Of a DNA stretch of 20,376 nucleotides, positions 10,451 through 11,029 are shown piece after piece. The stretch lies in the IMG/VR virus record IMGVR_UViG_648276651_000003, positions 1 through 20,376 of that record; one strand, given 5' to 3'. A program made the translations under genes and the position numbers. The DNA is from a virus. Taxonomy: Duplodnaviria > Heunggongvirae > Uroviricota > Caudoviricetes. The notes beneath the pieces were generated by a model. It made no database searches and was not told where the DNA came from. It saw only the letters and a program-made list of their open reading frames with translations. Each line of letters starts with the position of its first letter. The stretch's first letter is position 1.

Positions 10451-10591
10451 ATGATTAACCCGTCCGAGGTTGGAAAAGCTGGTGAAATGGTCAGGCTGAA
10501 AACGCTGGAGGCCATCTGGATTCAAGGGAAGCTGCGCATGTGGGGCCGCTGGTCTTACATCGGCGGCGGGAGGAGCGGCAATATGTTTTAA
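10451..10591 (+). CDS. Small ORF (46 aa), probably the N-terminal fragment of the Q-like antiterminator
   Basis: ATG at 10451 with GGAG RBS; MINPSEVGKAGEMVRLKTLEAIWIQGKLRMWGRWSYIGGGRSGNMF; same reading frame as 10649-11029, separated by one TAA at 10589-10591. Confidence 0.4.
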   Translation: MINPSEVGKAGEMVRLKTLEAIWIQGKLRMWGRWSYIGGGRSGNMF

Positions 10592-10648
10592 CAGTTACTG
10601 GCCTCCGGGAAAGTTACCAAGACAGCCATCAACGAAGCATTACGCCGG

Positions 10649-11029
10649 ATGAAGAAATCGGGTATCTCAAAGCCGGAACTGGAGGCGTTCTTTCGTGAAA
10701 TACTCGCGGGGAAAAACAAAAGCGGCCTGGCCTTCTGTACAGACGATGAAGGACTGCTGATTGATAAGGTACTGGGGGCAGTCCTTATTACGGGTGGACA
10801 CAAAGAGCTGTATCACCTGCTGGTGGAGCATTACCGGTTACGGAAGAGCAAACGCCGCATAGCGGAAGAGCTCTATGAAAAGCATCCAGACTGGTGCTTT
10901 ATGACCTGTAGACGCAGAGTTGATACGTGGCTAAGTTTGGCAGAATCGATGCTGTACGCACCAATGTGTGACGCATTCGGCACAAATGGCGACAGATTTT
11001 ACTTGCAAAGTGAGCCAAAAACTGCTTGA
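10649..11029 (+). CDS. Late-gene antiterminator Q-like protein (C-terminal part; QuuD/phage-82-type family by recollection)
   Basis: Position (after rusA/DUF968, before a tR'-like terminator and the lysis genes); motifs ...HKELYHLLVEHY... resemble my recollection of small Q homologues; no convincing RBS before ATG 10649. Confidence 0.5.
   Translation: MKKSGISKPELEAFFREILAGKNKSGLAFCTDDEGLLIDKVLGAVLITGGHKELYHLLVEHYRLRKSKRRIAEELYEKHPDWCFMTCRRRVDTWLSLAESMLYAPMCDAFGTNGDRFYLQSEPKTA

Follow-up and report, generated by a model that had tools for sequence, protein, structure and literature searches.

A prophage of Escherichia coli MS 116-1 carries a Q-like late antiterminator gene that appears to be split by a single in-frame TAA, which raises the question of whether this codon separates two proteins, inactivates one, or stands in the sequence record but not in the organism. 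The window considered here, the whole stretch of 20,376 nt that was analysed, is identical to GenBank scaffold GG773448.1 from a 2010 Human Microbiome Project draft of this strain (GCA_000164475.1), in which the pieces appear as two hypothetical proteins, EFK14705.1 (46 aa) and EFK14706.1 (126 aa). Since the TAA stands in the deposited GG773448.1 consensus, the observation itself is not a matter of chance. A sequence-only reading had proposed a Q-like gene and left three options for the split: a nonsense-inactivated Q, a sequencing error, or two genuinely separate proteins. Our analysis points to one DUF1133 gene, distantly related to the antiterminator Q of phage 21 (Q21), whose TAA is most probably a sequencing error, made in base calling or assembly, in the 2010 draft (Table 1).

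Table 1. Features of the Q-like locus in window coordinates, and near-identical contigs compared with the window.
Feature	Position	Strand	Description
Whole gene	10451..11029	+	DUF1133 family, putative Q21-like late-gene antiterminator; 192 codons with codon 47 as sense
N-terminal piece	10451..10591	+	46 codons plus TAA; helix 1 with L-x-x-W-G-x-W motif
C-terminal piece	10649..11029	+	126 codons; part of the torus-equivalent segment and the confidently predicted helical body
Two window-unique T>G changes	10570 and 10573	+	GGT AGT to GGG AGG, S41R; directly past GGC-GGC-GG
TAA stop	10589..10591	+	AAC (Asn47) in near-identical contigs; window-unique 10589 A>T and 10591 C>A
Candidate late promoter pR'	11003..11031	+	-35 TTGCAA (11003-11008), 17-nt spacer, -10 TTGAAT (11026-11031) overlapping the TGA; proposed from sequence
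-10-like TAGGCT, candidate sigma-dependent pause element	11037..11042	+	5 nt past the promoter -10; by analogy with the Q cassette
Intrinsic terminator, candidate tR'	11078..11101	+	AAAACCCGC-TTAAAG-GCGGGTTTT; terminator scan
Contig L145			Logan assembly SRR088906_623; 4177 nt compared
Contig L142			Logan assembly SRR29751002_74; 7810 nt compared
Contig L137			GCA_040565275.1; 5981 nt compared

One gene across the stop

The reading frame opens with an ATG at 10451-10453, with GGAG 8 nt upstream, and remains open for 46 codons until the TAA at 10589-10591. Nineteen sense codons (10592-10648) lie between the TAA and ATG 10649 in the shared frame, which is then open until the TGA at 11027-11029; no Shine-Dalgarno-like sequence is present upstream of this second ATG (ttacgccggATG). 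The layout described by the sequence-only reading, namely two ORFs in one frame with a single TAA and 19 sense codons between them, a good ribosome-binding site for the first and no convincing one for the second, holds with its coordinates. So do the WGxW and LYHLLVEHY motifs that it had picked out, which occur in the read-through protein as LRMWGRW (residues 28-34) and LYHLLVEHY (residues 120-128).

Pfam DUF1133 (PF06576) matched the read-through translation with 308.7 bits (cutoff 23.1; E = 1e-92), residues 1-177 aligning with profile positions 1-176 of 176. When the pieces were searched separately, the 46-aa piece occupied positions 1-46 and the 126-aa piece positions 67-176, and the 19 codons between them matched the remaining part of the profile. 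PHROG 753 (“anti-termination protein Q-like”) likewise covers the entire read-through protein (E = 8.5e-70). Members of DUF1133 come from enterobacterial prophages and are 191-192 aa long, as are all of the best 120 database relatives, none of which has a stop. All eight annotated relatives, of which four are Klebsiella phages and four E. coli prophages, have an uninterrupted 579-nt CDS at an equal distance past rusA and a DUF968/HNH gene, and 73 of 73 IMG/VR loci have a 192-codon ORF. Because DUF1133 and PHROG 753 span the stop and the relatives are uniformly 191-192 aa, these comparisons identify the two ORFs as halves of one gene. The same alignments place the start of the 126-codon piece at a conserved internal methionine, Met67, which is almost invariant in the family and is no real start codon. 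EFK14705.1 and EFK14706.1 are therefore best read as a single DUF1133/Q-like gene.

That the ORFs are instead two separate genes of different families, sharing a frame by chance, has a negligible probability. GenBank does annotate two hypothetical proteins, and the window's other in-frame neighbour pair (6953-7288 and 7298-8251) does consist of two normal genes; against this, the two pieces and the 19 codons between them fill consecutive parts of one profile, and the relatives all have a single 192-codon ORF. This refutes the option of two separate proteins, and the alignment of the read-through that had been suggested to decide it shows one DUF1133 profile and 192-aa homologues crossing the stop.

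The neighbour pair itself resembles the Q split in that its members share a frame and lie one stop and three codons apart; relatives are arranged alike, as expected of a normal pair. Frameshifting by +1 or -1 at TTTTAAC was considered and rejected by inspection: the pieces already share a frame, and the +1 frame ends about 20 codons on and has no homology. About 20 further database entries, named “DUF1133 family protein, partial” and 39-51 aa long, come from several genera and from contigs of which some are very short and some long.

Origin of the stop codon

The window's own Dam and DUF968 proteins led to three contigs (L145, L142 and L137; Table 1) that depart from the window at four positions only, where they read T (10570), T (10573), A (10589) and C (10591); L145 also departs from it at 11085-86, where that contig ends. 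The protein encoded by each of the three is intact and 192 aa long (GGGSSGNMFNQ...), and it is present on 8 contigs, named E. coli; the Dam protein of this prophage variant is also known from only 8 contigs. The accession number of SRR088906, the source of L145, belongs to the 2010-11 period, and because of this period and the rarity of the prophage variant, SRR088906 is probably strain MS 116-1's own read set or that of a sibling isolate with the same prophage. The AAC at 10589-10591 in these contigs, the SRR088906 assembly included, favours the earlier option of a sequencing error. A sense codon at this place comes close to what the sequence-only reading had named as the finding that would speak against a biological knockout. 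As evidence against a genuine nonsense pseudogene, the AAC in these contigs is strong but indirect, since SRR088906 may come from a sibling isolate.

The stop and the two upstream changes are confined to this one record. T occupies 10570 and 10573 in 8/8 relatives and 73/73 IMG/VR loci, in which codon 47 is AAC (65/73) or AAT (8/73). Asn47 is at least 90% conserved, and its neighbours F46, L49 and L50 are invariant. Comparing this codon in related prophages had been proposed as a check: none of the eight relatives and none of the 73 IMG/VR loci carries the stop. The 46-aa and 126-aa products are recorded from the GCA_000164475.1 assembly alone. Exact-pattern scans of IMG/VR, JGI metagenomes and GTDB genomes found neither the 25-nt TAA context nor the patch encoding GRS, apart from one chance 21-mer match in Paenibacillus, and the best match to the 70-nt patch region among 5,426 complete E. 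coli genomes was 65/70. A natural allele with GRS or the stop was rejected on these empty scans of viral, genome and metagenome collections.

The changes are also clustered. Comparison with the eight relatives over 2.8 kb gave 18 substitutions private to the window, and five of these fall within 22 nt (P ~6.5e-5); pairwise cluster counts against single relatives are uninformative, owing to mosaic divergence. One of the five, 10574 G>A (G42S), is common to the near-identical contigs and is hence a natural variant. The other 13 private substitutions (8 synonymous, 4 non-synonymous and 1 intergenic) look like ordinary variation; as a point against an artefact, no second such error cluster occurs in the 2.8 kb where window-private changes are definable. 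The remaining genes of the window are undisrupted; those that could be compared are full length, and the prophage shows no decay. A generally noisy assembly was rejected as a source of the patch, given the mostly synonymous character of the other private changes and the full length of all comparable genes, and so was an origin at a contig edge, the nearest gap being ~9.8 kb off.

All four odd bases copy their 5' neighbour, compared with a background of 23%. Two GGC triplets of the intact sequence fall within the 10 nt ahead of the first change, and one more separates the two pairs of changes; with GGC at codon 42, as in most relatives, there would be four GGC in 21 nt, a density equalled at only three other spots in the window. 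On the Illumina Genome Analyser, sequence-specific errors form clusters of miscalls after GGC or inverted repeats, the miscalled base being the preceding base, and they give rise to false SNPs and to breaks in assemblies (Nakamura et al. 2011, NAR 39:e90, PMC3141275). The patch resembles these clusters in starting within 10 nt after GGC and in the identity of each base with its 5' neighbour. It differs in having reached the consensus, which such errors, normally limited to reads of a single direction, rarely do. As GGC-triggered miscalls are strand-specific, opposite-strand reads should normally outvote them, which counts against an artefact.

The end of the window bears on how the scaffold was assembled. 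At 20340-20376 the sequence stops where the contig breaks, at a terminator hairpin with a T7 run; the scaffold gap beyond (L005 19729-19840) corresponds to ~46 nt in phage KY271401.1, with a second inverted repeat. Such a contig end is typical of short-read assembly failure at hairpins. The MS 116-1 assembly presumably used early Illumina chemistry, in keeping with HMP practice. The T>G changes at 10570 and 10573, together with A>T at 10589 and C>A at 10591, would then be sequence-specific lagging-phase miscalls set off by the GGC repeats, and the true sequence would be GGT AGT AGC GGC AAT ATG TTT AAC, which gives an intact 192-aa protein. We infer that the patch very probably arose as a sequencing error.

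Alternatively, the stop could be real, the product of one complex mutational event in the MS 116-1 lineage that changed four bases in 22 nt and gave S41R and an ochre codon 47, for example through a short error-prone or misaligned synthesis patch in the GGC-rich tract. We consider this unlikely. The stop does stand in the deposited consensus, and the remaining assembly is clean, with unremarkable private changes and no other broken gene. DNA polymerase errors by transient misalignment can likewise copy a neighbouring base, so the neighbour-copied bases could also have arisen in this way. By the Q21 alignment the stop falls between helix 1 and the body, in the nozzle region of Q21, so that truncation would plausibly abolish function. 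Against this reading, four changes in 22 nt face none in the remaining ~7.8 kb compared with L142, a contrast that makes independent mutations impossible (the clustering has the P value given above). Nor did the window provide a templating donor or a convincing quasi-palindrome: no k-mer of at least 10 nt from the mutant patch occurs elsewhere in the window, which led us to reject templated mutation or gene conversion within it, and the apparent gain in local self-complementarity (GGAGG...CCTCC, TGTT-TT-AACA) involves short, imperfect matches that leave some of the changes unexplained. Intermediate alleles are missing as well: among 15 billion proteins, neither the eight combinations of the GRS patch with a sense codon nor GSG/Lys47 was found, and GSG/Asn47, the patch reverted to the family consensus, is present on 360 contigs as the sole existing form of the ten looked up. 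The same-era read-set assembly of the same rare prophage variant is intact, and the context and direction of the changes fit a documented sequencing artefact. The nonsense-inactivated Q of the sequence-only reading has thus become improbable, contigs otherwise identical to the window having the intact sequence.

Expression of the gene despite the stop, by ochre read-through, by a suppressor tRNA, or by reassembly of the 46-aa polypeptide with a 126-aa polypeptide reinitiated at Met67, is very improbable. In its favour, the two ORFs share a frame, a good ribosome-binding site precedes the first, and the stop lies in a flexible, low-confidence linker outside the folded body. The stop is nevertheless shared by 0/73 IMG/VR loci, 0/8 annotated relatives and 0 of the best 120 matches, and since no relative has it, there is no sign of selection for a split or recoded form; by these comparisons the locus is neither a case of programmed recoding nor a naturally split gene. 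No tRNA gene, as a suppressor candidate, was found in the window. Termination in E. coli is most efficient at UAA, and Met67, which the family conserves as an internal residue, has no Shine-Dalgarno sequence ahead of it. A Q made of two pieces is also at odds with the ring of Q21, which is a continuous chain from helix 1 to helix 3 (bioRxiv 10.1101/651190).

With a sequencing error as the preferred origin, the GG773448.1 record is no ground for scoring this prophage as Q-defective or cryptic. What looks like a clean in-frame nonsense mutation in an early short-read draft can arise from a cluster of neighbour-copying substitutions that follow GGC repeats. If the mutation were true, it would be a natural multi-nucleotide mutation with a neighbour-copying signature, and in other respects a routine prophage-inactivating one. 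Either way, artefact or real mutation, the split is ordinary and the main value lies in correcting the annotation; the gene itself is unremarkable within a known, poorly named Q-like family.

Neighbourhood and candidate late cassette

In the window, as in the relatives, the gene stands between rusA/DUF968 and the lysis cassette. The Q cassette comprises the gene, pR', a sigma-dependent pause element and a terminator (bioRxiv 10.1101/651190), and candidates for the last three were placed at the end of the DUF1133 gene (Table 1). The -10 of the window, TTGAAT, has no consensus A at position 2. The place and spacing of the promoter are kept across DUF1133 subfamilies, distant members having TTGACT or TTGACA together with TAAATT, TACGAT or TAAGAT. 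The TAnnCT element (TAGGCT here, TATGCT or TAAGCT elsewhere) is kept in place down to ~40% protein identity. At the position of the terminator, 45-70 nt past the stop, related loci have at least seven distinct hairpin sequences, and the leader before the terminator is conserved. Taken by their sequences, DUF1133 loci look like a family-wide pR'/pause-element/tR' cassette. No Q-binding element could be assigned around the gene end; a possible Q-binding site, seen by eye, is the direct repeat CTTGnAnnGTGA at 11002 and 11025.

A second terminator lies at 11456-11469. Between it and the first is a 79-aa ORF (11180-11419) with an extended -10-like sequence ahead of it (TGGTAAAAT, 11141-11149). The stretch corresponding to 11105-11480 holds other cargo in relatives (TciA, tRNA-Thr and other ORFs), and this differing cargo suggests a site of moron insertion between Q and the lysis genes.

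Upstream of the gene, 9457-10437 encodes a 326-aa DUF968 protein with a weak HNH-type domain, at the place that NinG would take, between rusA and Q. Genomes that encode the identical 326-aa DUF968/HNH protein continue with a 192-aa DUF1133 gene in some cases (L132, L134, L135 and others; 3495-4073) and with a canonical 113-121-aa PF06530 Q in others (L133, L136 and L141; 3500-3865), and the mosaic junction falls exactly at the start of the Q gene. This arrangement fits a role of DUF1133 and PF06530 Q as alternative alleles of one function.

The prophage type is mostly from Klebsiella, with 22 of the 24 phage records that match the Q region being Klebsiella phages; the window is labelled E. coli. 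In genomes of 5.3-5.5 Mb, the integrase gene of the prophage adjoins icd (isocitrate dehydrogenase).

Comparison with Q21, QuuD and Q-defective prophages

Both sequence and predicted fold relate the DUF1133 gene product, at a distance, to the Q antiterminator of phage 21. PF06530, the family in which Yin et al. place Q21 and Q933W (bioRxiv 10.1101/651190), matched the read-through with 41.2 bits (gathering cutoff 26), in a partial alignment of profile positions 18-91 of 118 with residues 68-144. A sequence search of the PDB returned Q21 chains as the sole relatives (E = 1.2e-5), aligning residues 20-39 with Q21 12-31 (WLNGWLELWGAWVY; W..G.L..WG.W.Y) and residues 93-176 with Q21 55-149. For the structure we relied on an AF2 (AlphaFold) model of a 95%-identical homologue (mean pLDDT 71.6, below 50 around residues 38-55). 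Helix 1 (residues 8-35) is confidently predicted in this model and the body (98-176) has pLDDT >90, while residues 37-94 are of low confidence with three short predicted helices. A Foldseek comparison of the model with the PDB gave Q21 chains as the top 11 hits (probability 1.0, target TM 0.60-0.66), the next hit having E >5. Together with the DUF1133 and PHROG 753 matches, these results uphold the earlier call of a Q-like gene. A link between DUF1133 and Q had already been hinted at in PHROGs and in an HHpred note (PMC8136144).

The protein shares with Q21 (PDB 6P18, 6P19, 6P1A-C, 6JNX and 6JNY; PF06530) the L-x-x-W-G-x-W helix, a C-x-DD-x-G motif and the helical body, and the loci are alike in placing the gene before the lysis genes, with a promoter, a -10-like element and a terminator after it. 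Identity, however, is only ~22%, and the segments after helix 1 differ in length. The RNA-exit channel is narrowed in Q21 by a torus built from H2 and the two linkers that flank it (H1-H2 and H2-H3), with its narrowest point at Ser29 and Thr54 (bioRxiv 10.1101/651190). This segment, Ser29-Thr54, has ~26 residues in Q21, whereas the window protein has ~56 (residues 37-92) in a low-confidence part of the model. The low-confidence residues 37-94 sit at the position of the Q21 torus at about double its length, in a linker whose modelled shape is unreliable. DUF1133 proteins may thus build a larger or otherwise constructed RNA-exit nozzle. Codon 47 falls, by the Q21 alignment, within the torus-equivalent residues ~37-92.

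By homology with Q21, the intact 192-aa protein would load onto RNA polymerase paused just past the late promoter that overlaps its own stop codon, and a ring (torus) at the RNA-exit channel would be built by the stretch that follows the WGxW helix. The polymerase would then pass the terminators at 11078-11101 and 11456-11469 into the lysis and head genes. We infer this mechanism and the roles of the cis elements from sequence and by analogy. The value for annotation is modest: DUF1133 proteins can be described as putative Q21-type antiterminators with an enlarged torus segment and a conserved cassette at the gene end.

QuuD (b0551) of the cryptic prophage DLP12 in E. coli K-12, which the sequence-only reading had named as an example for both motifs, resembles the window protein in part. 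Its LERWGAW (residues 8-14) and LHDLLVDYY (67-75) match LRMWGRW and LYHLLVEHY, and the first motif reads LELWGAW in Q21, so the motifs are real features of the family. The likeness stops short of a full-length match: QuuD is a 127-aa, full-length PF06530 protein (179 bits) that scores 12 bits with DUF1133, under the cutoff, and BLASTP aligned it only with residues 72-128 of the window protein (E = 7e-4). It also lacks the extra segment of ~30 residues that holds the stop of the window.

In the classical Q-minus phenotype, late transcription stops at tR', so that neither lysis nor virions result. If the stop were real, the phenotype to be expected would be that of lambda Q amber mutants and Q-defective cryptic prophages: cut in the torus-equivalent segment, an otherwise intact prophage could not antiterminate late transcription and could still excise and replicate, without lysis or DNA packaging. 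Unlike Q-defective cryptic prophages, however, the prophage of MS 116-1 probably lacks the stop in the living organism, and its remainder shows no decay.
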